DNA of 64,000 nt from Eledone cirrhosa (lineage: Eukaryota), in assembly GCA_964016885.1 (NCBI GenBank), contig OZ024740.1, forward strand, positions 9,176,001 through 9,240,000. Reading direction: 5' to 3'. Shown here one piece after another: positions 6,001 through 60,101 of the stretch; the first letter of the stretch is position 1, and each line of letters begins with the position of its first letter. The translations under genes were made by a program, and so were the position numbers. The notes under the pieces were generated by a model, which ran no database searches, was not told where the DNA came from, and was given only the letters and a program-made list of their open reading frames with translations.

Positions 6001-6376
6001 TTCTATTGGTATATCAGTTCCGATTGGTATATCAGTTTCGATTGGTATGTCAGTTTCGATTAGTATATCAGTTTCTATTGGTATGTCAGTTATGATTGGT
6101 ATGTCAGTTTCTATTGGTATATCAGTTTCTATTGGTATATCAATTTCGATTGGTATGTCAGTTTCTATTGGTATGTCAGTTTCTATTGGTATATCAATTT
6201 CGATTGGTATGCCAGTTTCGATTGGTATGTCAGTTTCGATTTGTATGTCAGTTTCGATTGGTATATCAGTTTCGATTAGTATGTCAGTTTCTATTGGTAT
6301 ATCGGTTTCCATTGGTATATCAGTTTCAATTGGTATGTCAGTTTCTATTGGTATATCAGTTTCTATTGGTATGTCA

Positions 6377-6726
6377 ATTTGATGGAGGCACATGGCTTAG
6401 TGGTTAGAGCATTGGCCTTGCAATCGAAAGGTTGTGAGTTCAATTCTCAGACTGGGTGATGTGTTGTTTCCTTGAGCAAGACACTTTATTTCACATTGCT
6501 CCAGTTTACTCAGCTGTAGAAATGAGATGATAGGGACTGGGGTCCATATCATTCCACTGTAAAGTGGTCGTGGAGGTGCCACAGCAAAAAAGCACCCAGC
6601 ACTCACTGTAAATGAGGTTGGTGTTAGGAAGGGCATCCAGCTGTAGAAATCAAGCCAGCATCAGTTCCCGTCCCACCCTTGCAAGCAGGGAAAAGCGGAC
6701 GTAAAATGAAATGAATGAAATGAATG
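6377..6726 (+). mobile_element. tRNA-derived SINE with a CORE-like central segment and an RTE-LINE-derived 3' end, (ATGAA/TGAA)n tail, TSD ATGTCA
   Basis: The head ggaggcacaTGGCTTAGTGGttagagc...gAGTTCAATTCt contains A and B boxes. The segment ccttgagcaagacacttt resembles the CORE-SINE motif (from memory). 6555-6668 matches the LINE 3'UTR at about 13450-13600. The TSD is at 6371-6376 and 6727-6732. The empty site at about 33506 explains the exact 356-bp offset change. Confidence 0.92.
6393..6447 (+). promoter_or_regulatory. RNA polymerase III type-2 internal promoter of the SINE (A box 6393-6403, B box 6437-6447)
   Basis: TGGCTTAGTGG fits the A-box consensus TRGCNNARYGG. AGTTCAATTCT is near the B-box consensus GGTTCRANNCC. 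The spacing is tRNA-like. Confidence 0.8.
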
Positions 6727-6962
6727 ATGTCAGTTTTGATTGGTATGTCAGTTTCTATTGGTATATCAGTTTTGATTGGTATATGAGTTTCTATTGGTAT
6801 ATCAGTTCCGATTGGTATATCAGTTTCGATTGGTATATCAGTTTCTATTGGTATATCAGTTTCGAGTGATATACCAGTTTCGATTAGTATGTCAGTTTCT
6901 ATTGGTATGTCAGTTTCGATTAGTATATCAGTTTCTATTGGTATGTCAGTTTCGATTGGTAT

Positions 6963-7358
6963 CATCATCATCATCATCAGATTTAGCGTCCGTGTTCCAC
7001 GCTAGCATGGGTTTGGACGGGGGTTTTCCCACTTGAGGCAAGAGTGGTTGTCTTGCTCGCATAGGACTGTCTGGCGGGTTTTCTACAGTTGGATGCCCTT
7101 CCTAACACCAACCACATTTACAGTGTGGGGCTGGGAGATTTTTACCGTGTTGCCTACACGGCCACATTACAGCGTGGACTGTCTGGCGGGTTTTCTACAG
7201 CTGGATGCCCTTCCTAACACCAACCACATTTACAGTGTGGGGCTGGGAGGTTTTTACCGTGTTGCCTACACGGCCACATTTACAGCGTGGACTGTGTGTT
7301 TTTTGTCGTGACACCTACACGATCTCATTTGTTTCGGCCTGGATGTTGTGGGACCAAC
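6963..7358 (-). mobile_element. 396-bp non-coding RTE-related retroposon fragment (3'UTR plus ATG-repeat tail), copy 1
   Basis: It starts with (CAT)n on the + strand. It shares ttccacgctagcatggg and ctacagctggatgcccttcctaacaccaacc with the LINE 3'UTR. There is an 8-bp TSD ATTGGTAT (6955-6962 and 7359-7366) and an internal 112/113-bp duplication (7064-7175, 7176-7288). Confidence 0.9.
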
Positions 7359-9439
7359 ATTGGTATGTCAGTTTTTATTGGTATATCAGTTTCGATTGGT
7401 ATATCAGTTTCGATTGGTATATCAGTTTCGATTGGTATGTCAGTTTATATTGGTATGTCAGTTTCTATTGGTATGTCACTTTCAATTGGTATATCAGTTT
7501 CGATTGATATGTCAGTGTTATTGGTACGTCAATTTCGATTGGTATATCAGTTTCGATTGGTATGTCAGTCTCTATTGGTATATCAGTTTATAATTGTATG
7601 TCAGTTTCGATTGGTATGTCAGTTTCTATTGGTATATCAGTTTTGATTGGATTGGTATGTTAGTTTCTATTGGTATGTCAGTTCCGATTGGTATGTTAGT
7701 CCTCGATTCGTATGTCAGTTTCTATTGGTATATCAATTTCGATTGGTATGTCAGTTTCTATTGGTATGTCAGTTTCTATTGGTATATCAGTTTCGATTGG
7801 TACGTCAGTTTTGATTGGTATGTCAGTTTCGATTGGTATGTTAGTCCTTGATTCGTATGTCAGTTTCTATTGGTATATCAATTTCGATTGGTATATCAGT
7901 TTCTATTGGTATGTCAGTTTTGATTGGTATGTAAGTTTCTATTGGTATATCAGTTTCGATTGGTATATCTGTGTCTGTTGTTATATCAGTTCCGATTGGT
8001 ATATCAGTTTCGATTAGTATGTCAGTTTCTATTGGTATATCAGTTTCGATTAATATATCAGTTTCGATTAGTATGTCAGTTTCTATTGGTATGTCAGTTT
8101 CGATTAGTATATCAGTTTCTATTGGTATATCAGTTTCGATTGGTATGTCAGTTTCTATTGGTATATCAGTTTCGATTGGTATATCAGTTTCGATTAGTAT
8201 ATAAGTTTCGATTGGTATGTCAGTTTACATTGGTATGTCAGTTTCTATTGGTATGTCAGTTTCAATTGGTATATCAGTTTCAATTGGTATGTCAGTTTTA
8301 TTGGTATGTCAATTTCGATTGGTATATCAGTTTCGATTGGTATGTCAGTTTCTATTGGTATATCAGTTTATATTTGTATGTTAGTTTCGATTGGTATCTC
8401 AGTTTCTATTGGTATATCAGTTTTGATTAGTATGTTAGTTTCGATTGGTATATCAGTTTTGATTGGTATGTCAGTTTTGATTGGTATGTCAGTTTCTATT
8501 GGTATATCAGTTTCTATTGGTATATCAGTTTCTATTGGTATGTTAGTTTCTATTGGTATATCAGTTATTATTGGTATGTTAGTTTCTATTGGTATGTCAG
8601 TTTCGATTAGTATATCAGTGTCTAATGGTATGTCAGTTTCGATTGGTATGTTAGTCCTCGATTTGTATATCAATTTCGATTGGTAGGTCAGTTTCTATTA
8701 GTATATCAGTTTCTATTGGTATGTCAGTTTCGATTGGTATGTTAGTCCTCGATTTGTATATCAGTTTCTATTGGTATATCAATTTCGATTGGTAGGTCAG
8801 TTTCTATTGGTATATCAGTTTCTATTGGTACGTCAGTTTTGATTGGTATGTCAGTTTCTATTGGTATATCAGTTTCGATTGGTATATCAGTTTCTATTGT
8901 TATATCAGTTCCAATTGGTATATCAGTTTCGATTAGTATATCAGTTTCTATTGGTATATCAGTCCCCATTGGTATATCAGTTTCAATTGGTATGTCAGTT
9001 TCGATTGGTATATCAGTTTCGATTGATATATCCGTTTCGATTAGTATATCAGTTTCTATTGGTATGTCAGTTTCGATTAGTATATCAGTTTCTATTGGTA
9101 TATCAGTTTCGATTGGTATGTTAGTTTCTTTTGGTATGTCAGTTTTATTGGTATGTCAATTTCAATTGGTATATCAGTTTATATTTGTATGTCAGTTTCG
9201 ATTGGTATGTCAGTTTCTATTGGCATATCAGTTTTAATTGGTATGTTAGTTTCTATTGGTATGTCAGGTCCGATTGGTATGTTAGTCCGCGATTCGTACA
9301 TCAGTTTCTATTGGTATATCAATTTAGATTGGTATGTCAGTTTCTATTGGTCTGTTAGTTTCTATTGGTATATCAGTTTCTATTGGTATGACAGTTTTGA
9401 TTGGTATGTCAGTTTCTATTGGTATATCAGTTTCGATTG

Positions 9440-10613
9440 GTATATCAGTTTCTATTGGTATATCAGTTCCGATTGGTATATCAGTTTCGATTGGTATGTC
9501 AGTTTCGATTAGTATATCAGTTTCTATTGGTATGTCAGTTATGATTGGTATGTCAGTTTCTATTGGTATATCAGTTTCTATTGGTATATCAATTTCGATT
9601 GGTATGTCAGTTTCTATTGGTATGTCAGTTTCTATTGGTATATCAATTTCGATTGGTATGTCAGTTTCGATTGGTATGTCAGTTTCGATTTGTATGTCAG
9701 TTTCGATTGGTATATCAGTTTCGATTAGTATGTCAGTTTCTATTGGTATATCGGTTTCCATTGGTATATCAGTTTCAATTGGTATGTCAGTTTCTATTGG
9801 TATATCAGTTTCTATTGGTATGTCAGTTTTGATTGGTATGTCAGTTTCTATTGGTATATCAGTTTTGATTGGTATATGAGTTTCTATTGGTATATCAGTT
9901 CCGATTGGTATATCAGTTTCGATTGGTATATCAGTTTCTATTGGTATATCAGTTTCGAGTGATATACCAGTTTCGATTAGTATGTCAGTTTCTATTGGTA
10001 TGTCAGTTTCGATTAGTATATCAGTTTCTATTGGTATATCAGTTCCGATTGGTATATCAGTTTCGATTGGTATGTCAGTTTCGATTAGTATATCAGTTTC
10101 TATTGGTATGTCAGTTATGATTGGTATGTCAGTTTCTATTGGTATATCAGTTTCTATTGGTATATCAATTTCGATTGGTATGTCAGTTTCTATTGGTATG
10201 TCAGTTTCTATTGGTATATCAATTTCGATTGGTATGTCAGTTTCGATTGGTATGTCAGTTTCGATTTGTATGTCAGTTTCGATTGGTATATCAGTTTCGA
10301 TTAGTATGTCAGTTTCTATTGGTATATCGGTTTCCATTGGTATATCAGTTTCAATTGGTATGTCAGTTTCTATTGGTATATCAGTTTCTATTGGTATGTC
10401 AGTTTTGATTGGTATGTCAGTTTCTATTGGTATATCAGTTTTGATTGGTATATGAGTTTCTATTGGTATATCAGTTCCGATTGGTATATCAGTTTCGATT
10501 GGTATATCAGTTTCTATTGGTATATCAGTTTCGAGTGATATACCAGTTTCGATTAGTATGTCAGTTTCTATTGGTATGTCAGTTTCGATTAGTATATCAG
10601 TTTCTATTGGTAT
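9440..10613 (+). repeat. 576-bp (32-monomer) tandem duplication (mirrored at 36219-37392)
   Basis: ORF pairs 9545/10121 and 9869/10445 have offset 576. The rare variant tcgagtgatataccag recurs at about 9955 and 10531. Confidence 0.9.
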
Positions 10614-10631
10614 GTCAGTTTCGATTGGTAT

Positions 10632-11027
10632 CATCATCATCATCATCAGGTTTAGCGTCCGTGTTCCACGCTAGCATGGGTTTGGATGGGGGTTTTCCCA
10701 CTTGAGGCAAGAGTGGTTGTCTTGCTCGCATAGGACTGTCTGGCGGGATTTCTACAGTTGGATGCCCTTCCTAACACCAACCACATTCACAGTGTGGGGC
10801 TGGGAGATTTTTACTGTGTTGCCTACACGGCCACATTACAGCGTGGACTGTCTGGCGGGTTTTCTACAGCTGGATGCCCTTCCTAACACCAACCACATTT
10901 ACAGTGTGGGGCTGGGAGGTTTTTACCGTGTTGCCTACACGGCCACATTTACAGCGTGGACTGTGTGTTTTTTGTCGTTACACCTACACGATCTCATTTG
11001 TTTCGGCCTGGATGTTGTGGGACCAAC
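10632..11027 (-). mobile_element. 396-bp RTE-related fragment, copy 2 (made by array duplication)
   Basis: It has the same junctions and TSD as copy 1. I counted 6 substitutions versus copy 1 by eye. Confidence 0.9.
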
Positions 11028-12030
11028 ATTGGTATGTCAGTTTCTATTGGTATATCAGTTTCTATTGGTATATCAGTTTCGATTGGTATATCAGTTTCGA
11101 TTGGTATGTCAGTTTAAATTGGTATGTCAGTTTCTATTGGTATGTCACTTTCAATTGGTATATCAGTTTCGATTGATATGTCAGTGTTATTGGTACGTCA
11201 ATTTCGATTGGTATATCAGTTTCGATTGGTATGTCAGTCTCTATTGGTATATCAATTTATAATTGTATGTCAGTTTCGATTGGTATGTCAGTTTCTATTG
11301 GTATATCAGTTTTGATTGGATTGGTATGTTAGTTTCTATTGGTATGTCAGTTCCGATTGGTATGTTAGTCCTCGATTCGTATGTCAGTTTCTATTGGTAT
11401 ATCAATTTCGATTGGTATGTCAGTTTCTATTGGTATGTCAGTTTCTATTGGTATATCAGTTTCGATTGGTACGTCAGTTTGATTGGTATGTCAGTTTCGA
11501 TTGGTATGTTAGTCCTTGATTTGTATGTCAGTTTCTATTGGTATATCAATTTCGATTGGTAGGTCAGTTTCTATTGGTATGTCAGTTTCAATTTGTATGT
11601 CAGTTTAGATTGGTATGTCAGTTCCTATTGGTATATCAGTTTCTATTTGTATGTCAGTTTCGATTGGTATGTCAGTTTCTATTGGTATATCAGTTTCGAT
11701 TGGTATGTTAGTTTCTATTGTCATGTCAGTTTCGATTAGTATATCACTTTCTATTGGTATGTCAGTTTCGATTGGTATGACAGTTTCGATTGGTATGTCA
11801 GTTTCTATTGGTATATCAGTTTCGATTGGTATGTCAGTTTTGATTGGTATATCAGTTTCTATTATTATAGCAGTTTCTATTGGTATGTGAGTTTCAATTG
11901 GTATATCAGTATCTATTGGTACATCAGTTCCGATTGGTATATCAGTTTCGATTGTTATGTCAGTTTCTATTGGTTTATCAGTTCCGATTGGTATATCAGT
12001 TTCGATTGGTATGTCAGTTTCTATTGGTAT

Positions 12031-13410
12031 ATAGCACAGCTGATTAGGTACCGGGTGAATATAGACGAGATGCAATTTGGGTTTGTACCAGGAAGAAGCA
12101 CCACTGATGCCCTCTTCCTTGTGAGGCAATTACAGGAAAAGTACCTAGCTAAAAGTAAGCCACTCTACTTGGCATTTGTCGACCTTGAGAAAGCCTTTGA
12201 CAGAGTTCCACGTGCAGTAATCTGGTGGGCTCTTGGAAAACTAGGAATAGATGAATGGCTTGTGAAAGCGGTACAAGCCATGTATAGGGGAGCAGTCAGC
12301 AAAGTTAGGATTAGCAATGAGTATAGCGAGGAATTTAGCGTACAGGTTGGGGTCCACCAGGGCTCTGTTCTTAGCCCTCTCCTGTTCATCATAGTCCTGC
12401 AGGCAATAACGGAGGAATTTAAGACCTGATGCCCATGGGAACTCCTGTATGCTGATGACCTCGCACTCATAGCTGAATCTATGATAGAACTAGAGAATAA
12501 ATTCCAAACCTGGAAGCAGGGACTAGAGAGAAAGGGCCTCAAAGTCAACATGACAAAGACTAAGGTCCTTATAAGTAGACGAGAAAACAGAACCCAGATC
12601 CCCTCAGGGAAATGGCCTTGCTCAGTATGTAGGAAAGGTGTAGGTAGGAACTCCATTCTCTGCCCCAAATGCAAACAATGGGTACACAAGAGATGTAGCG
12701 GGATCTCAGGAAGCTTAATTAAGAATGTAGGATTCACATGCAGCAGCTGTGCTGAAACAGCAAGCAAACAGCCACAGGAAACAAGTACCACCAATCTCTG
12801 GGAGGGCCCTGTAGAAACAGTAGACAGCTTCTGCTACCTAGGTGACCGAATTAGCAGCGGAGGTGGGTGTTCAGAAAGTACAATAACTAGGGTAAGAACG
12901 GGATGGAAGAAGTTTAGGGAACTACTACCACTGCTAGCTGCAAAAGACTTCTCCCTCAGAATGAAAGGCAGACTGTATGATGCGTGTATCCGAACAGCGA
13001 TGGTGCATGGTAGTGAGACCTGGGCGCTGAAGGTGGAAGACTTACGTAGATTAGAGAGAAACGAAGCCTGCATGCTCCGATGGATGTGTAACAGTAATAT
13101 ACGTGAACGACAAAGCATAAATGAATTGAGAGGGAGACTGAGCATAAGAGGAATCAAATGCTGTGTGCAGGAGAGGTGGATGCGCTGGTATGGACATGTG
13201 ATGCGTATGAAGGATGACAGCTGCATAAAAAGGTGCAGAGCACTAGAAGTTGATGGAAACCGCGGAGTGGGGAGACCCAAGATGACCTGGGATGAGGTGA
13301 TAAAAGCCGACCTTACCCAATTACACCTCTCAAAGACAATGACACACGACCGTGACTTCTGGCGTCACGCAGTAATACAGAGTACCCGACCTCCCATGGG
13401 TACATGCTGA
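12031..13410 (+). pseudogene. Reverse transcriptase ORF remnant; lacks the N-terminus/endonuclease and has a nonsense codon at 12427-12429
   Basis: ORFs 11887..12429 and 12481..13410 share one frame. TGA replaces the GGA seen in the 58.7-60.1 kb copy (KTGCPWELLYADD). YADD is at 12448-12459. Confidence 0.93.
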
Positions 13411-13714
13411 AGCATATAAACAATATGACCCCACAGCCCCCACCGCCAGGTGGTCGTGGAGGTGCCACGGAAAAAAAGCACCCAGCCCACACTGTAAAGT
13501 GGACGTGTAGGCGCCACGAAAAAAGTACCCAGCACTCACTGTAAATGAGGTTGGTGTTAGGAAGGGCATCCAGCTGTAGAAACCAGGCCAAATCAGTTCC
13601 TGTATGAGCAAGGCATGGTCAGCCGACCAGACACAGCCCACAACAGGACAACCCGTCTAACCCATGCTAGCGTGGAAGAACGGATGTAAAACGGTGATGA
13701 TGATGATGATGATG
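12031..13714 (+). mobile_element. 5'-truncated RTE-clade non-LTR retrotransposon (LINE) with (TGA)n tail
   Basis: RT motifs present: QFGF, AFVDLEKAFDRVPR, GVHQGSVLSPLLF, YADD, KTKV and F.YLG. RTE-type C-terminal motifs RWYGHVMR and GRPKMTW follow. The 3'UTR is 13411-13694 and the tail 13695-13714. The element is flanked by the direct repeat ATGTCAGTTTCTATTGGTATAT (12011-12032 and 13715-13736), which includes microhomologies. Confidence 0.96.
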
Positions 13715-14539
13715 ATGTCAGTTTCTATTGGTATATCAGTTTTGATTGGTATGTCAGTTTCGATTGGTATATCAGTTTAGAATGGTATGTCAATCTCGAT
13801 TGGTATGTCAGTTTCGATTGGTATATCAGTTTTGATTAGTATGTCAATTTCTATTGGTATATCAGTTTTGATTGGTATATCAGTTTCGATTGGTATGTCA
13901 GTTTCGATTGGTATGTCAGTTTCTATTGGTATGTCAGTTTCGATTAGTATGTCAGTTTCTATTGGTATATCAGTTCCTATTGGTATATCAGTTTCGATTG
14001 GTATGTCAGTTTCTATTGGTATGTCAGTTTTGATTGGTAGCTCAGTTTCTATTGGTATGTCAGTTTCGCATAGTATGTCAGTTTCGATTAGTATGTCTGT
14101 TTCTATTGGTATATCAGTTTTAATTGGTATGTCAGTTTTGATTGGTATGTCAGTTTCTATTGGTATATCAGTTTCGATTGGTATATCAATTTCTATTGGT
14201 ATATCAGTTCCGATTGGTATATCAGTTTCGATTGGTATATCAGTTTCTATTGGTATATCAGTTCCGATTGGTATATCAGTTTCGATTGGTATGTCAGTTT
14301 CGATTAGTATATCAGTTTCTATTGATATATCAGTCTCGATTGGTATGTAAGTTTCGATTGGCATGTCAGTTTCTATTGGTATATCATTTTCGATGAGTAT
14401 ATCAGTTTCTATTGGTATATCAGTTTTGATTGGTATGTCAGTTTCTATTGGCATATCAGTTTCTATTGGTATGTTAGTTTCTATTGGTATGTCAGTTTCG
14501 ATTAGTATATCAGTTTCTATTGGTATGTCAGTTTCGATT

Positions 14540-17500
14540 GGTTTGTTAGTCCTCGATTTGTATGTCAGTTTCTATTGGTATATCAATTTCGATTGGTAGG
14601 TCAGTTTCTATTGGTATATCAGTTTCTATTGGTATGTCAGTTTTGATTGGTATGTCAGTTTCTATTGGTATATCAGTTTCGATTGGTATATCAGTTTCTA
14701 TTGTTATATCAGTTCCGATTGGTATATCAGTTTCGATTAGTATATCAGTTTCTATTGGTATATCAGTCCCGATTGGTATATCAGTTTCGATTGGTATGTC
14801 AGTTTCTATTGGTATATCAGTCTCGATTGATATATCAGTTTCAATTAGTATGTCAGTTTCTATTGGTATGTCAGTTTCGATTAGTATATCAGTTTCTATT
14901 GGTATATCAATTTCGATTGGTAGGTCAGTTTCAATTTGTATGTCAGTTTCGATTGGTATGTCAGTTTCTATTGGTATATCAGTTTCTATTTGTATGTCAG
15001 TTTCGATGGTATGTCAGTTTCTATTGGTATATCAGTTTCGATTGGTATGTTAGTTTCTATCGGTATATCAGTTTCGATTGGTATGTCAGTTTTGATTGGT
15101 ATGTCAGTTTCTATTATTATATTAGTTTCTATTGGTATGTGAGTTTAAATTGGTATATCAGTTTCTATTGGTATATCAGTTCCGATTGGTATATCAGTTT
15201 CGATTGGTATATCAGTTTCTATTGGTATATCAGTTCCGATTGGTATATCAGTTTCGATTGGTATGTCAGTTTCTATTGCTATATCAGTTTCGATTGATAT
15301 ATCAGTTTCGATTAGTATGTCAGTTTTTATTGGTATGTCAGTTTCGATTAGTATATCAGTTTCTATTGTTATGTCAGTTTCAATTGGTATGTCAGTTTCT
15401 ATTGGTATATCAGTTTTGATTGGTATATCAGTTTTGATTGGTATATCAGTTTCGATTGGTATGTCAGTTTCGATTAGTATATCAGTTTCTATTGGTATGT
15501 CAGTTTCGATTTTTATGTTAGTCCTCGATTTGTATGTCAGTTTCTATTGGTATATCAATTTCGATTGGTATGTCAGTTTCTATTGGTATGTCAGTTTCTA
15601 TTGGTATATCAATTTCGATTGGTATTTCAGTTTCGATTGGTATGTCAGTTTCGATTGGTATGTCAGTTTCTATTGGTATATCAGTTTCGATTGGTATATC
15701 AGTTTTGATTGGTATATCAGTTTCGATTGGTATGTCAGTTTCGATTGGTATGTCAGTTTTATTTGTATGTCAATTTCGATTGGTATATCACTTTCAATTG
15801 GTATGTCAGTTTCTATTTGTATATCAGTTTATATTTGTATGTCAGTTTCGATTGGTATGTCAGTTTCTATTGGTATATCAGTTTTGATTGGTATGTTAGT
15901 TTCTATTAGTATGTCAGGTCCGATTGGTATGTTAGTCCGCGATTCGTACGTCAGTTTCTATTGGTATATCAATTTCGATTGGTATGTCAGTTTCTATTGG
16001 TCTGTGAGTTTCTATTGGTATGTCAGTTTCGATTAGTATATCAGTTTCTATTGGTATGTCAGTTTCTATTGGTATATCAATTTCGATTGGTATATCAGTT
16101 TCGATTAGTATGTCAGTTTCGATTCGTATGTCAGTTTCGATTAGTATATCAGTTTCTATTGGTATGTCAGTTTCAATTGGTATGTTAGTCCTCGATTTGT
16201 ATGTCAGTTTCTATTGGTATATCAATTTCGATTGGTATATCAGTTTCGATTGGTATGTCAGTTTCGATTAGTATATCAGTTTCTATTGGTATGTCAGTTT
16301 CTATTGGTATATCAATTTCGATTGGTAGGTCAGTTTCTATTGGTATGTCAGTTTCAATTTGTATGTCAGTTTCGATTGGTATGTCAGTTTCTATTGGTAT
16401 ATCAGTTTCTATTTGTATGTCAGTTTCGATGGTATGTCAGTTTCTATTGGTATATCAGTTTCAATTGGTATGTTAGTTTCTATTGTTATTTCAGTTTCGA
16501 TTAGTATATCACTTTCTATTGGTATGTCAATTTCGATTCGTATGTCAGTTTCGATTGGTATGTCAGTTTCTATCGGTATATCAGTTTCGATTGGTATGTC
16601 AGTTTTGATTGGTATGTCAGTTTCTATTATTATATTAGTTTCTATTGGTATGTGAGTTTAAATTGGTATATCAGTTTCTATTGGTATATCAGTTCCGATT
16701 GGTATATCAGTTTCGATTGGTATATCATTTTCTATTGGTATATCAGTTCCGATTGGTATATCAGTTTCGATTGGTATGTCAGTTTCTATTGGTATATCAG
16801 TTTCGATTGATATATCAGTTTCGATTAGTATGTCAGTTTTTATTGGTATGTCAGTTTCGATTAGTATATCAGTTTCTATTGGTATGTCAGTTTCAATTGG
16901 TATGTCAGTTTCTATTGGTATATCAGTTTTGATTGGTATATCAGTTTCGATTGGTATGTCAGTTTCGATTAGTATATCAGTTTCTATTGGTATGTCAGTT
17001 TCGATTTTTATGTTAGTCCTCGATTTGTATGTCAGTTTCTATTGGTATATCAATTTCGATTGGTATGTCAGTTTCTATTGGTATGTCGGTTTCTATTGGT
17101 ATATCAATTTCGATTGGTATTTCAGTTTCGATTGGTATATCAGTTTCGATTGGTATGTCAGTTTCTATTGGTATATCAGTTTCGATTGTTATATCAGTTT
17201 TGATTGGTATATCAGTCTCGATCGGTATGTCAGTTTCGATTGGTATGTCAGTTTTATTGGTATGTCAATTTCGATTGGTATATCACTTTCGATTGGTATG
17301 TCAGTTTCTATTTGTATATCAGTTTATATTTGTATGTCAGTTTCGATTGGTATGTCAGTTTCTATTGGTATATCAGTTTTGATTGGTATGTTAGTTTCTA
17401 TTAGTATGTCAGGTCCGATTGGTATGTTAGTCCGCGATTCGTACGTCAGTTTCTATTGGTATATCAATTTCGATTGGTATGTCAGTTTCTATTGGTCTGT

Positions 17501-46400: not shown

Positions 46401-49400
46401 GTATGTCAGTTTCTATTGGTATATCAGTTTCTATTGGTATGTTAGTTTTGATTGGTATGTCAGTTTCTATTGGTATATCAGTTTCGATTGGTATATCAGG
46501 TTCTATTGGTATATCAGTTCCGATTGGTATATCAGTTTCGATTTGTATATCAGTTTCGATTGGTATATCAGTTTCAATTGGTATATCAGTTTCGATTGGT
46601 ATGTCAGTTTCTATTTGTATGTCAGTTTCTATTGGTATGTCAGTTTCAATTGGTATATCAGTGTCGATTGGTATGTCAGTTTCGATTGGTATATCAGTTT
46701 TGATTGGTATGTTAGTTTCTATTGGTATGTCAGTTCCGATTGTTATGTCATTTTCTATTGGTATATCAATTTCGATTGGTATATCAGTTTCGATTAGTAT
46801 GTCAGTTTCGATTCATATGTCAGTTTCGATTGGTATGTCAGTGTCGATTGGTATGTCAGTGTCGATTGGTATATCAGTTTTGATTGGTATGTCAGTTTCG
46901 ATTAGTATATCAGTTTCTATTGATATGTCAGTTTCGATTGGTATGTCAGTTTCTATTGGTATATCAATTTCGATTTGTAGGTCAGTTTCTATTGGTATAT
47001 CAGTTTCTATTGGTATGTCAGTTTTGATTAGTATATCAGTTTCCATAGGTATATCAGTTTCGATTGGTATGTCAGTTTCTATTGGTATATCAGTTTCGAT
47101 TGGTATATCAGTTTCGATTGTATATAAGTTTCGATTGGTATGTCAGTTTCTATTGGTATTTCAGTTTCAATTTGTATGTCAGTTTCGATTGGTATGTCAG
47201 TTTCTATTGGTATATCATTTTCTATCTGTATGTCAGTTTCGATTGGTATGTCAGTTTCTATTGGTATATCAGTTTCGATTGGTATATCAGTTTCTATTGG
47301 TATATCAGTTCCGATTGTTATATCAGTTTCGATTGGTATATCAGTTTCTATTGGTATATCAGTTCCGATTGGTATATCAGTTTCGATTGGTATGTCAGTT
47401 TCTATTAGTATATCAGTTTCGATTGATATATCAGTTTCTATTAGTATGTCAGTTTCTATTGGTATGTCAGTTTCAATTAGTATATCAGTTTCTATTGGTA
47501 TGTCAGTTTTGATTGGTATGTCAGTTTCTATAGGTATGTCAGTTTCTATTGGTATGTCAGTTTCGATAGGTATGTCAGTTTTATTGGAATGTCAATTTCG
47601 AGTGGTATATCAGTTTCGATTGTTATGTCAGTTTTATTGGTACGTCAATTTCGATTGGTATATCAGTTTCGATTGGTATATCAGTTTTGATTGGTATGTT
47701 GGTTTCTATTGGTATGTCAGGTCTGATTGGTATGTTAGTCCGCGATTCGTACGTCAGTTTCTATTGGTATATCAATTTCGATTGGTATGTCAGTTTCTAT
47801 TGGTATGTCAGTTTCTATTGGTATATCAATTTCGATTGGTATATCAGTTTCGATTAGTATGTCAGTTTCGATTCGTATGTCAGTTTCGATTGGTACATCA
47901 GTTTCGATTGGTATGTCAGTTTCGATTTGTATGTCAATTTCGATTTGTATGTCAGTTTCGATTAGTATGTCAGTTTCTATTGGTATATCAGTTCCGATTG
48001 GTATATCAGTTTCGATTGGTATGTCAGTCTCGATTAGTATATCAGTTTCTATTGGTATGTCAGTAATGATTGGAATGTCAGTTTCTATTGGTAAATCAGT
48101 TTCTATTGGTATATTAGTTTCTATTGTTATGTCAGTTTCTATTGGTATGTTAGTCCACGATTAGTATGTCAGTTTCTATTGGTATATCAATTTTCATTGG
48201 TATGTCAGTTTCTATTGGTATATCAATTTCGATTGGTATGCAACTTTCGATTTGTATATCTGTTTCGATTCGTATGTCAGTTTCGATTGTTATGTCAGTT
48301 TCGATTGGTATGTCAGTTTCGATTGGTATATCAGTTTCGATTAGTATGTCAGTTTCTATTGGTATATCAGTTTCGATCGGTATGTCAGTTTCTATTGCTA
48401 TATCAGTTTTGATTGGTATATCAGTTTCGAATGGTATGTCAGTTTCTATTGGTATGTCAGTTTCAATTGGTATATCAGTTACGATTGATATGTCAGTTTT
48501 ATTGGTATGTCAATTTCGATTGGTATATCAGTTTCGATTGGTATGTCAGTTTCTATTGGTATATCAGTTTATATTTGTTTGTCAGTTTCGATTGGTATGT
48601 TAGTTTCTATTGGTATATCAGTTTTGATTGGTATGTTAGTTTCTATTGTTATGTCAGTACCAATCGGTATGTTAGTCATCGATTCGTATGTCAGTTTCTA
48701 TTGGTATATCAATTTCGATTGCTATGACAGTTTCGATTGGTATGTCAGTTTCGATTGGTATATCAGTTTCAAATGGTATGTCTGTTTTGATTGGTATGTC
48801 AGTTTGGATTGGTATATCAGTTTCTATTAGTATGTCAGTTTCTATTGGTATATCAGTTTCTATTGGTATATCAGTTTCGATTGGTATGTCTGATTCATTG
48901 GTATATCAGTTTCGATTGGTATATCAGTTTCGGTTGGTATGTCAGTTTCGATTGGTATATCAGTTTCTATTGGTATATCAGTTTCGAATGGTATGTCAGT
49001 TTCTATTGGAATGTCAGTTTTGATTAGTATATCAGTTTCTATTGGTATGTGAGTTTCGATTGGTATGTTAGTCCTCGCTTTGTTTGTCAGTTTCTCTTGG
49101 CATATCAGTTTCGATTGGTATTTCAATTTCGATTAGTAAATCAGTTTCTGTTTGTTTGTCAGTTTCTATTGGTATATCAGTTTCGATTGGTATGTCTGTT
49201 TTGATTGGTATGTCTGTTTTGATTGGTATGTCAGTTTGGATTGGTATATCAGTTCCTATTGGTATATCAGTTTCGATCGATATATCCGTTTCTATTTGTA
49301 TGTCAATTTTCGATTGGTATGTCAGTCTCTATTGGTATATCAGTTTCTATTGGTATATCAGTTTCGATATGGATGTCAGTTTCGATTGATATGTCAGATA

Positions 49401-52400
49401 CGATTAGTATATCAGTTTCTATTGGTAAGTCAGTTTCTATTGGTATATGAGTTTCAATTGGTATATCAGTTTTAATAGGTATATCAGTTTCGATTGGTAT
49501 GTCAGTTTCGATTAGTATATCAGTTTCTTTTGGTATGTGAGTTTCTATTGGTATATCAGTTTCGATAGCTATGTAAATTTCGATTGGTATTTCAGTTTCG
49601 ATTGGTATATCAGTTTCGAGTCGTATGTCAGTTTCGATTGGTATATCAGTTTCGATTTATATGTCAGTTTCGATTGGTATGTCAGTTTATATTGGTATAA
49701 CAGTTTCTGCTGGTATGTCAGTTTCTATTGGTATATCAGATTCGATTGGTATATCAGTTTCTATTGGTATATCAGTTTCGATTGGTATGTCTGATTCATT
49801 GGTATATCAGTTTCGATTGGTATATCAGTTTCGGTTGGTATGTCAGTTTCGATTGGTATATCAGTTTCTATTGGTATATCAGTTTCGAATGGTATATCAG
49901 TTTCTATTGGTATGTCAGTTTCGATTGGTATGTTAGTCCTCGATTTGTTTGTCAGTTTCTATTAGTATGTCAGTTTCTATTGGTATATCAGTTCCTATTG
50001 GTATATCAGTTTCGATTGATATATCCGTTTCTATTTGTATGTCAATTTTCGATTGGTTTGTCAGTTTCTATTGGTATATCAGTTTCTATTGGTATATCAG
50101 TCTCGATTGGGATGTCAGTTTCGATTAGTAAATCATTTTCTATTTGTATGTCAGTTTCTATTGGTATATCAGTTTCTATTGGTATGTCAGGTCCGATTGG
50201 TATGTTAGACCGCGATTCGTACGTCAGTTTCTATTGGTATATCAATTTCGATTGGTATGTCAGTTTCTATTGGTCGGTCAGTTTCTATTGGTATATCAGT
50301 TTCGATTGGTATGTCAGTTTCTATAGGTATATCAATTTAGATTGGTATATCAGTTTCGATTCGTATGTCAGTTTCGATTGGTACGTCAGTTTCGATTGGT
50401 ATATCAGTTTTGAATGGTATGTCTGTTTTGATTGGTATGTCAGTTTCGATTGGTATGTCAGTTTCGATTGGTATATCAGTTTCTATTGGTATGTCAGTTA
50501 TGATTGGTATGTCAGTTTCTATTGGTATATCAGTTTCTATTGGTATATCAGTTTCTATTGGTACGTCAGTTTCTCTTGGTATGTTAGTCCTCGATTTGTA
50601 TGTCAGTTTCTATTGGTATATTAATTTCGATTGGTATGTCAGTTTATATTGGTATGTCAGTTTCTATTGCTATATCAATTTCGATTGGTATGCCAGTTTC
50701 GATTTGTATATCAGTTTCGATTCGTACATCAGTTTCGATTGTTATGTCAGTTTCGATTGGTATGTAAGTTTCGATTTGTATGTCAGTTTCGATTAGTATG
50801 TCAGTTTCTATTGGTATATCGGTTTCCATTGGTATATCAGTTTCAATTGGTATGTCAGTTTCTATTGGTATATCAGTTTCTATTGGTACGTCAGTTTTTA
50901 GTGGTATGTCAGTTTCTATTGGTATATCAGTTTCGATTTGTATATCAGTTTCTATTGGTATATCATTTCCGATTGGTATATCAGTTTCGATTGGTATATC
51001 AGTTTCTATTGTTATATCAGTTCCGATTGGTATATCAGTTTCGATTGGTATATCAGTTTCTATTGTTATGTCAGTTTCGACTAGTATATCAGTTTCTATT
51101 GGTATGTCAGTTTCGATTGGTATGTCAGTTTCTATTGGTATATCAGTTTCGATTGGTTTATCAGTTTCGATTGGTATGTCAGTTTCTATTGGTATGTCAG
51201 TTTCTATTCGTATGTCAGTTTCATTTGGTATATCAGTTTCGATTGATATGTCAGTTTTATTGGTATGTCAATTTCGATTGATATATCAGTTTCGATTGGT
51301 ATGTCAGTTTCTATTGGTATATCAGTTTATATTTGTCTGTCAGTTTCGATTGGTATATCAGTTTTGATTGTTATGTTAGTTTCTATTGGGATGTCAGTAC
51401 CGATTGGTATGTTAGTCCTTGATTCGTATGTCAGTTTCTATTGGTATCTCAATTTCGATTGGTATGTCAGTTTCTATTGGTATGTCAGTTTCAATTGGTA
51501 TATCAGTTTCGATTGGTATGTCAGTTTCGATTAGTTTATCAGTTTCTATTGGTATGTCAGTTTTGATTGGTATGTTAGTTTCTATTGGTATGTCAGTTTC
51601 GACTGGTATGTTAGTCCTCGATTCGTATGTCAGTTTCTATTGGTATATCAATTTCGATTGGTAGGTCAGTTTCGATTGGTATGTCAGTTTCGATTGGTAT
51701 GTCAATTTCGATTGGTATGTCAGTTTCGATTGGTATATCAGTTTCAAATGGTATGTCTGTTTTGATCGGTATGTCAGTTTGGATAGGGATATCAGTTTCT
51801 ATTAGTATGTCAGTTTCTATTGGTATATCAGTTTCTATTGGTATGTCAGTTTCGATTGGTATGTTAGTCCTCGATTCGTATGTCAGTTTCTTTTGGTATA
51901 TCAATTTAAATTGGTATGTCTGTTTCTATTGGTATGTCAGTTTCTATTGGTATATCAGTTTCTATTGGTATGTCAGTTTTGATTGGCTTGTCAGTTTCTA
52001 TTATTATATCAGTTTCTATTGGTATGTGAGTTTCTATTGGTATATCAGTTTCGATTGCTATGTCAATTTCGATTGGTATTTCAGTTTCGATTGGTATATC
52101 AGTTTCGATTTGTATGTCAGTTTCGATTGGTATATCAGTTTCGATTTATAAGTCATTTTCGATTGGTATGTCAGTTTCTATAGGTATATCAGTTTCTATT
52201 GGTATGTCAGTTTCTATTGGTATATCAGTTTCGATTGGTATGTCTGTTTAAATTGGTATATCAGTTTCGATTAGTATATCAGTTTCGGTTGGTATGACAG
52301 TTTCGATTGGTATATCATTTTCTATTGGTATATCAGTTTCGAATGGTATGTCAGTTTCTATTGGTATGTCAGTTTTGATTAGTATAACAGTTTCTATTGG

Positions 52401-55400
52401 TATGTCAGTTTCGATTGGTATGTTAGTCCTCGATTTGTTTGTCAGTTTCTATTGGCATATCAGTTTCGATTGGTATTTCAATTTCGATTAGTAAATCAGT
52501 TTCTATTGGTATATCAGTTTCAATTGGTATGTCAGTTTCGATTGGTATATCAGTTTCGACTGGTATATCAGTTTCGATTGGTATGTCAATTTCGATTGGT
52601 ATGTCAGTTTCGATTGGTATGTCAGTTTCGATTGGTATATCAGTTTCAAATGGTATGTATGTTTTCATTGGTATGTCAGTTTGGATAGGTATATCAGTTT
52701 CTATTAGTATGTCAGTTTCTATTGGTATATCAGTTTCAATTGGTATGTCAGTTTCGATTGGTATGTCAGTTTCTATTGGTATATCACTTTCGATTGATAT
52801 ATCAATTTCCATTTGTATGTCAATTTTCGACTGGTATGTCAGTTTCTATTGGTATATCAGTTTCGATTGCTATGTCAATTTCGATTGGTATGTCAGTTTC
52901 GATTGGTATATCAGTTTCGATTGGTATGTCAGTTTCGATTGGTATGTCAGTTTTGATTGGTATGTCAGTTTCTATTGGTATATCAGTTTCAAATGGTATA
53001 TCAGTTTCTATTGATATGTCAGTTTTATTAGTATGTCAGTTTCTATTGGTATATTAGTTTCGATTGGTATGTCAGTTTCTATTGGTATGTCAGTTTCGAT
53101 CAGTATATCAGTTACTATTGTTATGTCAATTTCGATTGGTATGTCAGTTTCGATTGGTATATCAGTTTTGATTTGTATGTCAGTTTCGATTACTATATCA
53201 GTTTCTTTTGGTATCTCAGTTTATATTGGTATATCAGTTTCTATTCAGATGTCAGTTTCTATTGGTATGTCAGTCTCGATTTGTATGTCCGTTTCGAGAG
53301 GCATATCATTTTCGATTCGTATGTCAGTTTCTCTTGGTATATCAGTTTCTATTGGTATATCATTTTCGATTGGTATGTCAATTTCTATTGGTATGTCAGT
53401 TTATATTTGTATGTCAGTTTCGATTGGTATGTCAGTTTCTATTGGTATATCAGTTTTGATTGGTATGTTAGTTTCTATTGGTATGTCAGTTTCGATTAGT
53501 ATATCAGTTTCTATTGGTATGTCAGTTTCGATTGGTATGTTAGTCCTCGATTTGTATGTCAGTTTCTTTTGGTATATCAATTTAGATTATATGTCAGTTT
53601 CTATTGGTATGTCAGTTTCTATTGGTATATCAGTTTCGATTGATATATCAGTTTCGATTGGTATATCGGTTTCCATTGGTATATCAGTTTCGATTGGTAT
53701 GTCAGTTTCGATTGGAATATCAGTTTCTATTGGTATATCAGTTTCTATTGGTATATCAGTTCCGATTGGTATAACAGTTTCGATTGGTATGTCAGTTTCT
53801 ATTGGTATATCAGTTTCGATTCATATATCAGTTTCGATTTGTATGTCCGTTTCTATTGGTATGTCAGTTTCGATTAGTATATCAGTTTCTATTGGTATGT
53901 CAGTTTCGATTGGTATGTCAATTTCTATTGGTATATCAGTTTTGATTGGTATATCAGTTTTGATTGGTATGTCAGTTTTGATTAGTATATCAGTTTCTAT
54001 TGGTATGTCAGTTTCAATTGGTATGTTAGTCCTCGATTTGTATGTCAGTTTCTATTGGTATATCAATTTCGATTGGTATGTCAGTTTCTATTGGTAAGTC
54101 AGTTTCTATTGGTATATCAATTTCAAATTGGTATGTGAGTTTCGATTTGTATATCAGTTTCGATTCGTATGTCAGTTTCGAATGGTATATCAGTTTCGAT
54201 TGATATATCAGTTTTGATTGGTATGTCAGTATCTATTGGTATGTCAGTTTCTATTTGTATATCAGTTTCGATTGGTATATCAGTTTCTATTGGTATATCA
54301 GTTCCGATTGGTATATCAGTTTCGATTGGTATATCAGTTTCTATTGGTATATCAGTTCTGATTGGTATATCAGTTTCGATTGGTATGTCAGTTTCTATTG
54401 GTATATCAGTTTCGATTGGTATATCAATTTTTGATTGGTATATCAGTTTCGATTGGTATGTCAGTTTCTATTAGTATGTCAGTTTCGATTGGTATGTCAG
54501 TTTCGATTTGTACGTCAGTTTCGATTGGTATGTCAATTTCGATTGGTATGTCAATTTCGATTAGTATGTCAGTTCCTATTGGTATATCAGTTTCTATTGG
54601 TATGTCAGTTTTGATTGGTATGTCAGTTTCTATTGGTATATCAGTTTCGATTGGTATATCAGTTTCTATTGGTATATCAATTCCGATTGGTATATCAGTT
54701 TCGATTGGTATGTCAGTTTTGATTGGTATGTCAGTTTCTATTGGTATATCAGTTTCGATTGGTATATCAGCTTCTATTGGTATATCAGTTCCGATTGGTA
54801 TATCAGTTTCGGTTGGCATATCAGTTCCGATTGGTATATCAGTTTCTATTGGTATGTCAGTTTCTATTGGTATATCAATTTCGATTGGTATATCAGTTTC
54901 AATTAGTATGTCAGCTTCGATTCGTATGTCAGTTTCGATTGGTACGTCAGTTTCGATTGGTATGTCAGTTGCGATTTGTATGTAAGTTTCTATTGGTATA
55001 TCAGTTTCGATTGGTATATCAGTTTCTATTGGTATATCAGTTCCGATTGGTATATCAGTTTCCATTGGTATATCAGTTTCTATTGTTATATCAGTTCCGA
55101 TTGGTATATCAGTTTCGATTGGTATATCAGTTTCTATTGGTATATCAGTTTCTATTGGTATATCAGTTCCGATTGGTATGTCTGTTTCGATTGGTATGTC
55201 AGTTTCTATTGGTACATCAGTTTCGATTGGTATATCAGTTTCGATTGCTATATCAGTTTCGATTGGTATGTCAGTTTCTATTGGTATGTCAGTTTCTATT
55301 GGTATGTCAATTTCGATTGGTATATCAGTTTCGATTGGTATGTCAGTTTCTATTGGCATATCAGTTTTGATTGGTATGTTAGTTTCTGTTGGTATGTCAG

Positions 55401-58400
55401 TTCCGATTGGTATGTTAGTCCTCGATTCTTATGTCAGTTTCTATACGTATATCAATTTCGATTGACATGTCAGATTCTATTGGTCTGTCCGTTTCTATTG
55501 GTATATCAGTTTCTATTGGTATGTTAATTTCGATTGGTATATCAATTTCGATTGGTATGTCAGTTTCTATTGGTATGTCAGTTTCTATTGGTATATCAGT
55601 TTCAATTGGTATATCAGTTTCGATTGGTATGTTAATTTCGATTGGTATATCAATTTCGATTGGTATGTCAGTTTCTATTGGTATGTCAGTTTCTATTGAT
55701 ATGTCAGTTTCTATTGGTATATCAGTTTCGATTGGTATGTCAATTTGAATTGGTATATCAGTTTCGATTGGTATGTCAGTTTCTATTGGTATATCAGTTT
55801 CAATTGGTATGTCAGTTTCTATTGGTATATTAGTTTGTATTGGTATGTCAGTTTTGATTGGTATGTCAGTGTCTATTGGTATATCAGTTTCGATTGGTAT
55901 ATCAGTTTCTATTGGTATATCAGTTCCGATTGGTATATTAGTTTCGATTGGTATATCAGTTTCTATTGGTATATCAGTTTCTATTGGTATGTCAGTTCAA
56001 TTGGTATATCAGTTTCTATTGGTATATCAGTTCCGATTGGTATATCAGTTTCGATTGGTATGTCAGTTTCGATTAGTATATCAGTTTCTATTGGTATGTC
56101 AGTTATGATTGGTATGTCAGTTTCTATTAGTATATCAGTTTCTATTGGTATGTCAGTTTCTATTGGTATGTTAGTCCTCGATTTGTATGTCAGTTTCTAT
56201 TGGTATATCAATTTCGATTGGTATGTCAGTTTCTGTTGGTATATCAATTTCTATTGGTAAGTCGGTTTCGATTTGTGTATCAGTTTCGATTGGTATGTCA
56301 GTTTCGATTGGTATGTCAGTTTCGATTGGTATGTCAGTTTCGATTGGTATATCAGTTTCGATTAGTATGTCAGTTTCTATTGGTATATCGGTTTCCATTG
56401 GTATATCAGTTTCAATTGGTATGTCAGTTTTGATTGGTATATCAATTTCGATTGGTATATCAGTTTCGATTAGTATGTCAGCTTCGATTCGTATGTCAGT
56501 TTCGATTGGTACGTCAGTTTCGATTGGTATGTCAGTTTCTATAGGCATATCAATTTCGATTGGTATGTCAGTTTCTATTGGTCTGTCCGTTTCTATTGGT
56601 ATATCAGTTTCTATTGGTATGTCAGTTTCTATTGGTATATCAGTTTCAATTGGTATATCAGTTTCGATTGGTATGTCAATATCGATTGGTATATCAATTT
56701 CGATTAGTATGTCAGTTTCTATTGGTATGTCAGTTTCTATTGGTATATCAGTTTCAATTGGTATATCAGTTTCGATTGGTATGTCAATTTCGATTGGTAT
56801 ATCAATTTCGATTGGTATGTCAGTTTCTATTGGTATGTCAGTTTCTATTGATATGTCAGTTTCAATTGGTATATCAGTTTCGATTGGTATGTCAATTTCG
56901 ATTGGTATATCAGTTTTGATTGGTATGTCAGTTTCTATTGGTATATCAGTTTATATTTATATGTCAGTTTCTATTGGTATATCAGTTTTGATTGGTATGT
57001 CAATTTCGATTGGTATATCAATTTCGAGTGGTATATCAGTTTCAATTGGTATATCAGTTTCGATTGGTATGTCAATTTCGATTGGTATATCAATTTCGAT
57101 TGGTATGTCAGTTTCTATTGGTATGTCAGTTTCTATTGGTATATCAGTTTCAATTGGTATATCAGTTTCGATTGAAATGTCAATTTCGATTGGTATATCA
57201 ATTTCGATTAGTATGTCAGTTTCTATTGGTATATCAATTTCGATTGGTATGTCAGTTTCGATTTGTATATCAGTTTCGATTCGTATGTCAGTTTCGATTG
57301 CTATGACAGTTTCGATTGGTATGTCAGTTTCGATTAGTATGTCAGTTTCGATTGGTATATCAGTTTCGATTAGTATGTCAGTTTCTATTGGTATATCGGT
57401 TTCCATTGGTATATCAGTTTCAATTGGTATGTCAGTTTCTATTGGTATATCAGTTTCTATTGGCATGTCAGTTTTGATTGGTATGTCAGTTTCTATTGGT
57501 ATATCTGTTTCGATTGGTACATCAGTTTCGATTGGTATATCAGTTCCGATTGGTATGTCAGTTTCTATTGGTATATCAATTTCGATTGGTATATCAGTTT
57601 CGATTAGTATGTCTGTTTCGAATCATATGTCAGTTTCGATTAGTACGTCAGTTTCGATTGGTATGTCAGTTTCGATTTGTATATCAGTTTCGATTCTTAT
57701 GTAAGTTTCTATTGGTATATCAATTTTGATTGGTATGTCAGTTTCGATTTGTATATCAGTTTCGATTCGTATGTCAGTTTCGATTCGTATGTCAGTTGCG
57801 ATTGGTATATCAGTTTCGATTAGTATGTCAGTTTTGATTGGTATGTCAGTTTCTATTGGTATATCAGTTTCGATTGGTATATCAGTTTCTATTGGTATAT
57901 CAGTTCCGATTGGTATGTCAGTTTCTATTGGTATATCGGTTTCCATTGGTATATCAGTTTCAATTGGTATGTCAGTTTCTATTGGTATATCAGTTTCGAT
58001 TGGTATATCAGTTTCTATTGGTATATCAGTTCCGATTAGTATATCAGTTTCGATTGGTATATCAGTTTCCATTGGTATATCAGTTTCAATTGGTATGTCA
58101 GTTTCGATTAGTATGTCAGATTCAATTGGTATGTCAGTTTCGATTAGTATATCAGTTTCTATTGGTATGTCAGTTTCTATTGGTATGTCAGTTTCTATTG
58201 GTAAATCAGTTTCGATTGGTATATCAGTTTCGATTGGCATATCAGTTTCTATTGGTATGTCAGTTTCTATTGGTATGTCAGTTTCTATTGGTATGTCAGT
58301 TTCAATTGGTATATCTGTTTCTATTGGTACATCAGTTCCGATTGGTATATCAGTCTCGATTGGTATGTCAGTTTCGATTAGTATATCAGTTTCTATTGGT

Positions 58401-58691
58401 ATGTCAGTTATGATTGGTATGTCAGTTTCTATTAGTATATCAGTTTCTATTGGTGTGTCAGTTTCTATTGGTATGTTAGTCCTCGATTGGTATGTCAGTT
58501 TCTATTGGTATATCAATTTCGATTGGTATGTCAGTTTCTATTGGTATATCAATTTCGATTGGTATGTCAGTTTCGATTTGTGTATCAGTTTCGATTCATA
58601 TGTCAGTTTCGATTGGTATGTCAGTTTCGATTGGTATGTCAGTTTCGATTAGTATGTCAGTTTCGATTGGTATATCAGTTTCGATTAGTAT

Positions 58692-60101
58692 CATCATCAT
58701 CACCGTTTTACGTCCGTTCTTCCACGCTAGCATGGGTTAGACGGGTTGTCCTGTTGTGGGCAGTGTCTGGTCGGCTGACCATGCCTTGCTCATACAGGAA
58801 CTGATCTGGCTTGATTTCTACAGCTGGATGCCCTTCCTAACACCAACCTCATTTACAGTGAGTGCTGGGTGCTTTTTCGTGGCGCCTACACGTCCACTTT
58901 ACAGTGTGGGCTGGGTGCTTTTTTGCCGTGGCACCTCCACGACCACCTTGCGGTGGGGGGAGGGGGGGCATATTGATTATATGCTTCAGCATGTACCCAT
59001 GGGAGGTCGGGTACCCTGTATTACTGCGTGACGCCAGAGGTCACGGTCGTGTGTCATTGACTTTGAGAGGTGTAGTTGGGTAAGGTCGGCTTTTATCACC
59101 TCATCCCAAGTCATCTTGGGTCTCCCCACTCCGCGGTTTCCATCAACTTCTAGTGCTCTGCACCTTTTTATGCAGCTGTCATCCTTCATACGCATCACAT
59201 GTCCATACCAGCGTAACCGCCTCTCCTGCACGCAGCATTTGATTCCTCTTATGCTCAGTCTCTCTCTCAATTCCTTTATGCTTTGTCGTTCACGTATATT
59301 ACTGTTACACATCCATCGGAGCATGCAGGCTTCGTTTCTCTCTAATCTACGTAAGTCTTCCACCTTCAGCGCCCAGATCTCACTACCATGCAACATCGCT
59401 GTTCGGATACACGCATTATACAGTCTGCCTTTCATTCTGAGGGAGAAGCCTTTTGCAGCTAGCAGTGGTAGTAGTTCCCTAAACTTCTTCCATCCCGTTC
59501 TTACCCTAGTTATTGTACTTTCTGAGCACCCACCTCCGTTGCTAATTCGGTCACCTAGGTAGCAGAAGCTGTCTACTGTTTCTACAGGGCCCTCCCAGAG
59601 ATTGGTGGTACTTGTTTCCTGTGGCTGTTTGCTTGCTGTTTCAGCACAGCTGCTGCATGTGAATCCTACAATCTTAATTAAGCTTCCTGAGATCCCGCTA
59701 CATCTCTTGTGTACCCATTGTTTGCATTTGGGGCAAAGAATGGAGTTCCTACCTACACCTTTCCTACATACTGAGCAAGGCCATTTCCCTGAGGGGATCT
59801 GGGTTCTGTTTTCTCGTCTACTTATAAGGACCTTAGTCTTTGTCATGTTGACTTTGAGGCCCTTTCTCTCTAGTCCCTGCTTCCAGGTTTGGAATTTATT
59901 CTCTAGTTCTACCATAGATTCAGCTATGAGTGCGAGGTCATCAGCATACAGGAGTTCCCATGGGCATCCGGTCTTAAACTCCTCCGTTATTGCCTGCAGG
60001 ACTATGATGAACAGGAGAGGGCTAAGAACAGAGCCCTGGTGGACCCCAACCTGTACGCTAAATGCCTCGCTATACTCATTGCCAATCCTAACTTTGCTGA
60101 C
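58692..60101 (-). mobile_element. Independent 5'-truncated RTE LINE insertion, same family, antisense, no TSD (2-bp target deletion)
   Basis: Reverse complement of about 12295-13700 with scattered substitutions. It has a different truncation point and a shorter tail. The empty paralog at 62866-62880 reads attagtat-GT-cagtttctattggtatatcggtttcc. Confidence 0.95.
58986..60101 (-). pseudogene. C-terminal RT ORF fragment, frame open, YADD at 59937-59948
   Basis: The 309-aa ORF 58986..59915 plus upstream in-frame GVHQGSVLSPLLF...KTGCPWELLYADD. About 14 aa differ from the + copies. Confidence 0.9.

Follow-up and report, generated by a model that had tools for sequence, protein, structure and literature searches.

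Phased insertion of RTE-like retrotransposons and a SINE in an 18-bp satellite array of Eledone cirrhosa

Introduction

Long interspersed elements (LINEs) integrate by target-primed reverse transcription, in which a nicked target strand serves as primer. L1 reportedly inserts in a site-specific manner in human alphoid satellite, as the title of Laurent et al. 1997 has it. Among the closest described systems, RTE-clade LINEs and their short interspersed elements (SINEs), such as Bov-B, Sauria SINE and plant RTE/Au, show a Tn-TA insertion signature (PMC6007223, PMC13295347). Their target duplications are cited as 7-15 bp in PMC6007223, whose own search required at least 10 bp. Targeting of TA is given only for Micron miniature inverted-repeat transposable elements in the relevant passage of PMC3812793. 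Here we analyse a window of 64,000 nucleotides (C1:9176001-9240000 of the 3.0-Gb Eledone cirrhosa assembly), which is made of an 18-bp satellite, and the (ATG)n-tailed, RTE-like LINEs and tRNA-headed SINE inserted in it and in the remainder of the array. An earlier note on this window had proposed, from four junctions, that these elements dock at a single AT dinucleotide of the monomer on both strands.

Phase of the 3′ junctions in the array

The satellite forms an array that begins near 7.230 Mb, stops near 9.59 Mb (a length of about 2.3-2.4 Mb) and comprises around 130,000 copies of the 18-base unit, natural variants included. Dimer matches (21,052 forward versus 137 reverse) are consistent with a single array.

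1..64000, + strand: 18-bp satellite, monomer ATTGGTATRTCAGTTTCK; section of the single array at about C1:7.23-9.59 Mb

We numbered the monomer A1 T2 T3 G4 G5 T6 A7 T8 R9 T10 C11 A12 G13 T14 T15 T16 C17 K18. Its sole YATR (pyrimidine-AT-purine) is T6-A7-T8-R9, which is palindromic and has the same reading on either strand. A contiguous 1.064 Mb of the array (C1:8.476-9.54 Mb) was read and contained 96 non-satellite segments, 88 of them with a motif-called (ATG)n end at a satellite boundary. By conservative merging, which possibly hides a few separate events, these gave 54 clusters, and one SINE overlooked by the motif brought the sample to 55 independent events. Seven segments were excluded: one duplicate of a counted cluster, two tailless LINE pieces, two elements ending in (ATT)n and two related unidentified fragments.

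The junctions of 51 of the 55 events fell at the AT of monomer positions 7-8 (P = 3.8e-16 versus use of any AT), three at AT 1-2 and one a single base off. This phase was observed in both orientations, with 42/45 events at the site for elements oriented as the satellite (P = 9e-14) and 9/10 for opposite ones (P = 0.002), and it was common to four LINE families and the SINE, thus to five distinct 3′-end types. Each junction is placeable only within 6/7 to 8/9 (9/10 in ATG monomers), since tail and target have AT or ATG in common, and four of the 51 events lie in variant or slipped monomers, where positions were assigned by eye. In phase-free pattern searches, 78 overlapping same-orientation rows were all in register 7 save one duplicated junction at position 1, and 12/12 opposite rows were at position 8. 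Outside the 1.064-Mb sample, 35/36 satellite junctions at 7.23-8.48 Mb were in phase (by eye, duplicates included, two non-satellite-patch rows dropped), as were a further 6/6 at the array end. Hence, tabulated in a larger sample, junctions are not spread over the monomer: the fixed phase proposed for several LINE families and a SINE on both strands was borne out, and so was the claim that the other AT sites are left aside, AT 1-2 being the rare exception.

Insertions in the window

The window holds eight insertions, four of them independent and four duplicates carried by segmental copies of 3.7 kb and 26.8 kb. They are listed below with one empty site; a slash marks the junction.

6381..6726, + strand: tRNA-headed SINE; 3′ junction at monomer position 7, ...AATG/ATGTCAG at 6726/6727
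9800..9840, + strand: paralogous empty site for the SINE insertion, with the target A at 9820; the flanks, 126 bases on each side, align without a mismatch
6963..7358, - strand: 5′-truncated fragment of the 3′ untranslated region (3′UTR) of LINE family D; junction at monomer position 8, ATTGGTAT/CATCAT at 6962/6963
10632..11027, - strand: family D fragment, non-independent copy of 6963..7358
33742..34137, - strand: family D fragment, duplicate of 6963..7358
37411..37806, - strand: family D fragment, duplicate of 6963..7358
12033..13714, + strand: 5′-truncated LINE of family A; junction at monomer position 7, ...GATG/ATGTCAG at 13714/13715
38812..40493, + strand: family A LINE, duplicate of 12033..13714 situated 26,779 bases downstream
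58692..60101, - strand: independent 5′-truncated LINE of family A; junction at monomer position 8, ATTAGTAT/CATCAT at 58691/58692

All four independent junctions were found as the earlier note had described them, around monomer positions 7-8. The SINE is flanked by a duplication of ATGTCA, 6 bases if exact and 10 allowing one mismatch. The family D fragment at 6963..7358 has an internal duplication of 112 bp and an 8-bp target duplication, ATTGGTAT. The family A LINE at 12033..13714 encodes reverse transcriptase and a PHD finger, with one in-frame stop near 12427-12429, and its 4-bp target duplication reads ATAT in the left copy and ATGT in the right. The LINE at 58692..60101 has no duplication; two target bases were lost in comparison with its empty site (7 mismatches over 252 flanking bases). 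By itself, the window gives 4/4 events at one site (P = 0.027 versus any AT used, 0.055 for any one shared AT site), evidence for a fixed site which, taken alone, is of marginal significance.

Target duplications and empty sites

Judged from flank phases, most duplications are of 3-6 bases. Empty-site paralogues were located for 14/55 events, among them three of the window's four, and showed a duplication of 4-6 bp in eight cases, of 8-10 bp in three and a net loss in three; none of the 14 had a duplication of 22-24 bp, the length of one monomer plus 4-6 bp. Base 9 was identical on both sides in 20/23 informative events (P = 0.0002), and all three disagreements had A in the left flank and G in the right one, as expected if the ATG of the tail overwrites the target. 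The array copies are real insertions with short duplications or small deletions. Similar short duplications were observed outside the array wherever flanks allow. Most cases here do not reach the RTE-type 7-15 bp (8/14 are of 4-6 bp), which is a typical range and not a strict criterion, and short duplications of this kind would escape searches that require 10 bp.

The LINE families and the SINE

In long LINE copies, a single frame of about 1000-1170 residues encodes APE endonuclease, reverse transcriptase and a PHD finger, and the element ends in a short tandem repeat, (ATG)n, not in poly(A). In 3/3 families scanned, frames of 1040-1166 residues matched both PF03372 and PF00078; in the Pfam scan the PHD finger directly follows the reverse transcriptase core (e.g. 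L102:3334-6831), and an RNase H domain gave no match in these families. Absence of RNase H is a feature of RTE-clade LINEs. The four LINE protein types are 64-91% identical to each other. Of 926 reverse transcriptase homologues, 120 are listed (P0001-P0120), among which many unnamed ones at about 50% identity also have a PHD finger and none is named to clade, while a search of solved structures returned L1 and R2 only, as distant matches. The label RTE, already used in the earlier note, fits the architecture; we write RTE-like, for it was drawn from this architecture and from sequence motifs, not from a tree. Ten independent near-full-length copies at C1:8.476-9.54 Mb have open frames of 988-1166 residues, so that the array may hold active source copies. 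Pairwise identity is 98-99% in A, B and D, which are thus young families, and lower in the older C (93%) and SINE/E (88%).

The head of the SINE matches the Rfam tRNA model RF00005 at 6391-6454 (29.9 bits versus a gathering threshold of 29, E 0.0002); ARAGORN called no tRNA on the SINE. Its body resembles the family A 3′UTR and its 3′ end comes from a separate LINE, family E: some 40 bases adjoining the tail are shared with the end of a family E LINE at C1:9080345-9085055 (L011), which has an open frame of 1025 residues. The SINE is therefore composed of three parts, with family E as its probable partner LINE within the same array; the SINE 3′-end pattern used below counts SINE and family E together. 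An unrelated two-frame APE-reverse transcriptase LINE, which ends in (ATT)n, is 22-24% identical to the other LINEs and is CR1-like judging by its motif, has three array copies (L158:1929-7173, C1:9386197-9386771 and C1:8324384).

Targets outside the array

Outside the array we collected 129 distinct junctions from 137 loci in the first 6.5 Mb of one contig. ATR was present in 107/117 AT-starting junctions versus 72% of background AT sites, and 80/129 junctions open a purine-pyrimidine alternation of at least 6 bases. The resolved 5′ flanks were alternating in 35/72 cases versus 14% of background, which indicates that the (AT)n tracts are older than the insertion. Growth of (AT)n from the tail is excluded, as 5′ flanks alternate too and array tails carry no (AT)n. 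Outside the array, the families mostly enter (AT)n-type DNA. Thus the satellite is a landing site, as had been proposed, in that the phase is real; it resembles a genome-wide ATR preference in (AT)n-type DNA, not a satellite-specific device.

Two side observations were made. Tail-to-tail pairs of elements in opposite orientations occur, the members of a pair sharing a short AT tract (L053/L054, L219, L234, L282), and another dispersed repeat (around ATTACTCTAT) was struck repeatedly near one position by these families (L073, L242, L245, L250).

A probable rule for target choice

The most probable explanation, to which we give a probability of about 70%, is that the fixed phase comes from an ordinary YAT^R nick and a tail-pairing preference shown on a periodic substrate, with no seeking of the satellite. 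Judging from junction positions, the endonuclease would nick one strand at 5′-YAT^R, which for copies oriented as the satellite would be the bottom strand at the 6/7 step and for opposite copies the top strand at the 8/9 step. The freed YAT end would pair with the AUG tail through two Watson-Crick pairs plus either C-G or a T-G wobble, and the second strand would be cut about 4-6 bases away. The same rule would send the families into (AT)n DNA elsewhere. The array would be a permissive and fairly long-lived target, in which young families build up as fast as in nearby DNA or somewhat faster, older copies having likely been lost or predating the array.

Such a rule would account for the use of only two monomer positions, because only there do a pyrimidine-purine step and a YAT primer coincide. 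ATT and ATC sites would be unused because they pair less well with the tail, and the minus-strand ATAT at 10-9 (0/10 opposite events) and ATCA because the cut would have to fall outside a pyrimidine-purine step. T was found at -1 in 27/27 resolved + events, and the minus site is Y/A; since 98% of monomers have T at this position, the support for T/A lies in the choice of site. Primers pairing with the AUG tail, as previously suggested, thus stand in so far as YAT-3′ ends can pair; pairing does not choose the site by itself.

Several points weigh against this explanation. Nick positions are deduced from junctions, each blurred by 2-3 bases of microhomology, and the background used outside the array comes from the very loci that supplied the junctions. 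Genome-wide, the upstream T run is only slightly enriched (odds ratio 1.22, SINE). Families B and D reach 3.3x and 2.9x their density in C1:0-6.45 Mb, yet the array has no excess of YATR (46 per kb versus 59 per kb in comparison loci). Finally, a 19-bp satellite of about 0.49 Mb at C1:28.07-28.56 Mb (L318, L321-L329), with the site TTTT...T/ATATG, had no (ATG)n tails in either orientation, against an expectation of 8-13 if detection rates of 0.3-0.5 are assumed. As this array has the same motif and is empty, sequence alone does not set density, and a T run plus TA is excluded as a sufficient magnet. It is also more homogenised (77% versus 32% recurring 200-mers), and faster turnover can therefore account for its emptiness.

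Strand bias

Of the 55 events, 45 are oriented with the satellite and 10 against (4.5:1), so that the landing site, previously described as bidirectional, is used on both strands but in a strongly asymmetric manner. TTT at 14-16 lies 9-11 bases upstream of the + strand target, which reads T/A, whereas AAA, not TTT, is upstream of the minus-strand site. This TTT was intact in 27/27 resolved + events (chance 0.04). Genome-wide, the TTT:AAA ratio upstream of SINE heads was 947:587 (1.61) at the expected offset versus 902:680 (1.33) twelve bases further (P 0.008; forward counts only, because reverse counts repeat matches). These data weakly suggest that the upstream TTT may be behind the bias. Inverted satellite patches exist at C1:7893710 and 8071707, and both elements inside keep the orientation of the satellite, not that of the chromosome (the patches may be later inversions).

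Density in the array and in other satellites

Genome counts were 12,314 for family A, 11,490 for B, 14,890 for C, 3,659 for D and 22,861 for SINE/E. The array contains 42/11,490 (B), 17/3,659 (D) and about 41/12,314 (A), at most 0.5% of the copies of each family, which excludes a dedicated targeting of the satellite. Relative to the genome mean, independent array copies were at 3.7x (A), 4.7x (B) and 6.2x (D), versus 0.19x (C) and 0.74x (SINE/E). With nearby ordinary DNA (C1:0-6.45 Mb, rows counted by eye) as reference, A, B and D were at 1.0-3.3x (family A 1.24x, P 0.46) and older families level or depleted (family C 0.08x, SINE pattern 0.57x). The comparison of array and non-satellite density called for earlier thus gave a modest enrichment for young families only. 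As a target the array is thus permissive and may be slightly favoured; these elements are not dedicated to it.

Elsewhere, 90 kb of the 19-bp satellite and 70 kb of four other satellites were read and contained no such insertions; family B had no row between C1:11.83 and 16.9 Mb, where 9/9 samples were tandem repeats. A second 18-bp satellite (CATACG) had no tails in the one orientation searched, a result that is uninformative without a size estimate. The region C1:6.5-31 Mb (L081-L100, L301-L320) is a patchwork of over 20 minisatellite arrays that are unrelated to one another and have units of about 12-74 bp, most of them nearly without these elements.

One could read more into these densities. 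In the most far-reaching version, which we hold to be unlikely, currently active LINEs would land preferentially and directionally in this one satellite, which would also serve as their reservoir: owing to the TTT-to-TATR spacing and to local chromatin, young families would arrive several times more often than across the genome, with a single orientation and in many cases intact, other satellites being excluded, even the same-motif one, and the families would define an (AT)n-seeking, RTE-like lineage with a stagger of 4-6 bases. A narrower version, in which chromatin or periodic DNA structure makes the array an actively preferred sink for currently mobile families on top of the sequence rule, we consider rather improbable as well. 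The excess of A, B and D over the genome mean, the near emptiness of other satellites and the ten events with long open frames speak for such a sink, but the excess shrinks against nearby ordinary DNA, where family A is not significantly enriched and the older family and the SINE pattern are depleted; moreover, turnover can explain the empty 19-bp array, and relaxed selection could likewise raise density.

Pairing alone and recombination

The ordinary nick with a pairing preference was also confronted with two explanations that need no nick specificity or few insertions. If tail-target pairing alone chose among nicks spread evenly over the monomer, the AT or ATG common to the tail and every used site would be explained, as would the (ATT)n-tailed LINE found at its best match, TATT (18-3), in 1/3 events. 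The same LINE was however at the TATA site in 2/3, GAT at 18-2 was used in just 2/45 same-orientation events, and ATA monomers, which offer a wobble pair, were struck as often as ATG monomers (13 versus 10). Above all, the minus-strand ATCA at 9-12, the longest tail match and present in 48% of monomers, was used by 0/10 opposite events and 0/12 rows; as the best-pairing site is skipped, pairing alone is insufficient, and we judge this explanation very unlikely. Multiplication of a few ancestral junctions by unequal crossing-over or conversion between element copies, mimicking many events, agrees with the common duplicates (88 ends in 54 clusters) and with chimeric copies such as a family D end beside a family B piece at C1:9.108-9.121 Mb, but is largely refuted by five distinct 3′-end types in one phase, with proteins only 64-91% identical, and by empty sites with event-specific duplications for 14/55 events, including three of the window's four.

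Comparison with known systems

In a literature search that left most subscription papers and Repbase outside, we found no report of satellite-phased insertion or of an (AT)n bias for RTE-like elements. The case of L1 in alphoid satellite is, by its title, similar in that a LINE of weak specificity is found at recurring satellite positions; here another clade, an 18-bp monomer, both strands and 55 events are concerned.

Another likeness is with the Tn-TA signature. As described for Bov-B (PMC13295347), the + site here has TTT at -11 to -9, then T/A; the duplication begins at the A after T, its first base matches the microsatellite tail, and LINEs and SINE use one site (PMC6007223, PMC13295347). 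By contrast, the T run in our data is only weakly enriched genome-wide and has no counterpart at the minus site, most duplications are of 4-6 bp versus the 7-15 bp cited, and (AT)n is the dominant target; supplements of both papers may contain data on shorter duplications.

The microsatellite-targeting non-LTR (long terminal repeat) elements Koshi (TTC) and Dong (TAA) also have a strong simple-repeat bias, put down mainly to endonuclease specificity in the part of PMC3812793 concerned; here the repeat is (AT)n, the bias partial (80/129) and the element a single-frame APE-reverse transcriptase-PHD one. The SINE is similar to those described in PMC5786205, with LINE-derived bodies and exchanged tails, by its tRNA head, its body of LINE sequence and its partner-LINE tail, and differs in that the body matches the family A 3′UTR and the tail a different LINE, family E.

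In the array a retrotransposon target rule can be read base by base, whereas elsewhere (AT)n flanks conceal it. This bears on the question raised in PMC6007223 and PMC13295347 of endonuclease preference versus tail pairing, since the best-pairing site is skipped here. The array is a useful natural reporter of target choice, and the phased insertion is a variant of known behaviour, not a new targeting system.

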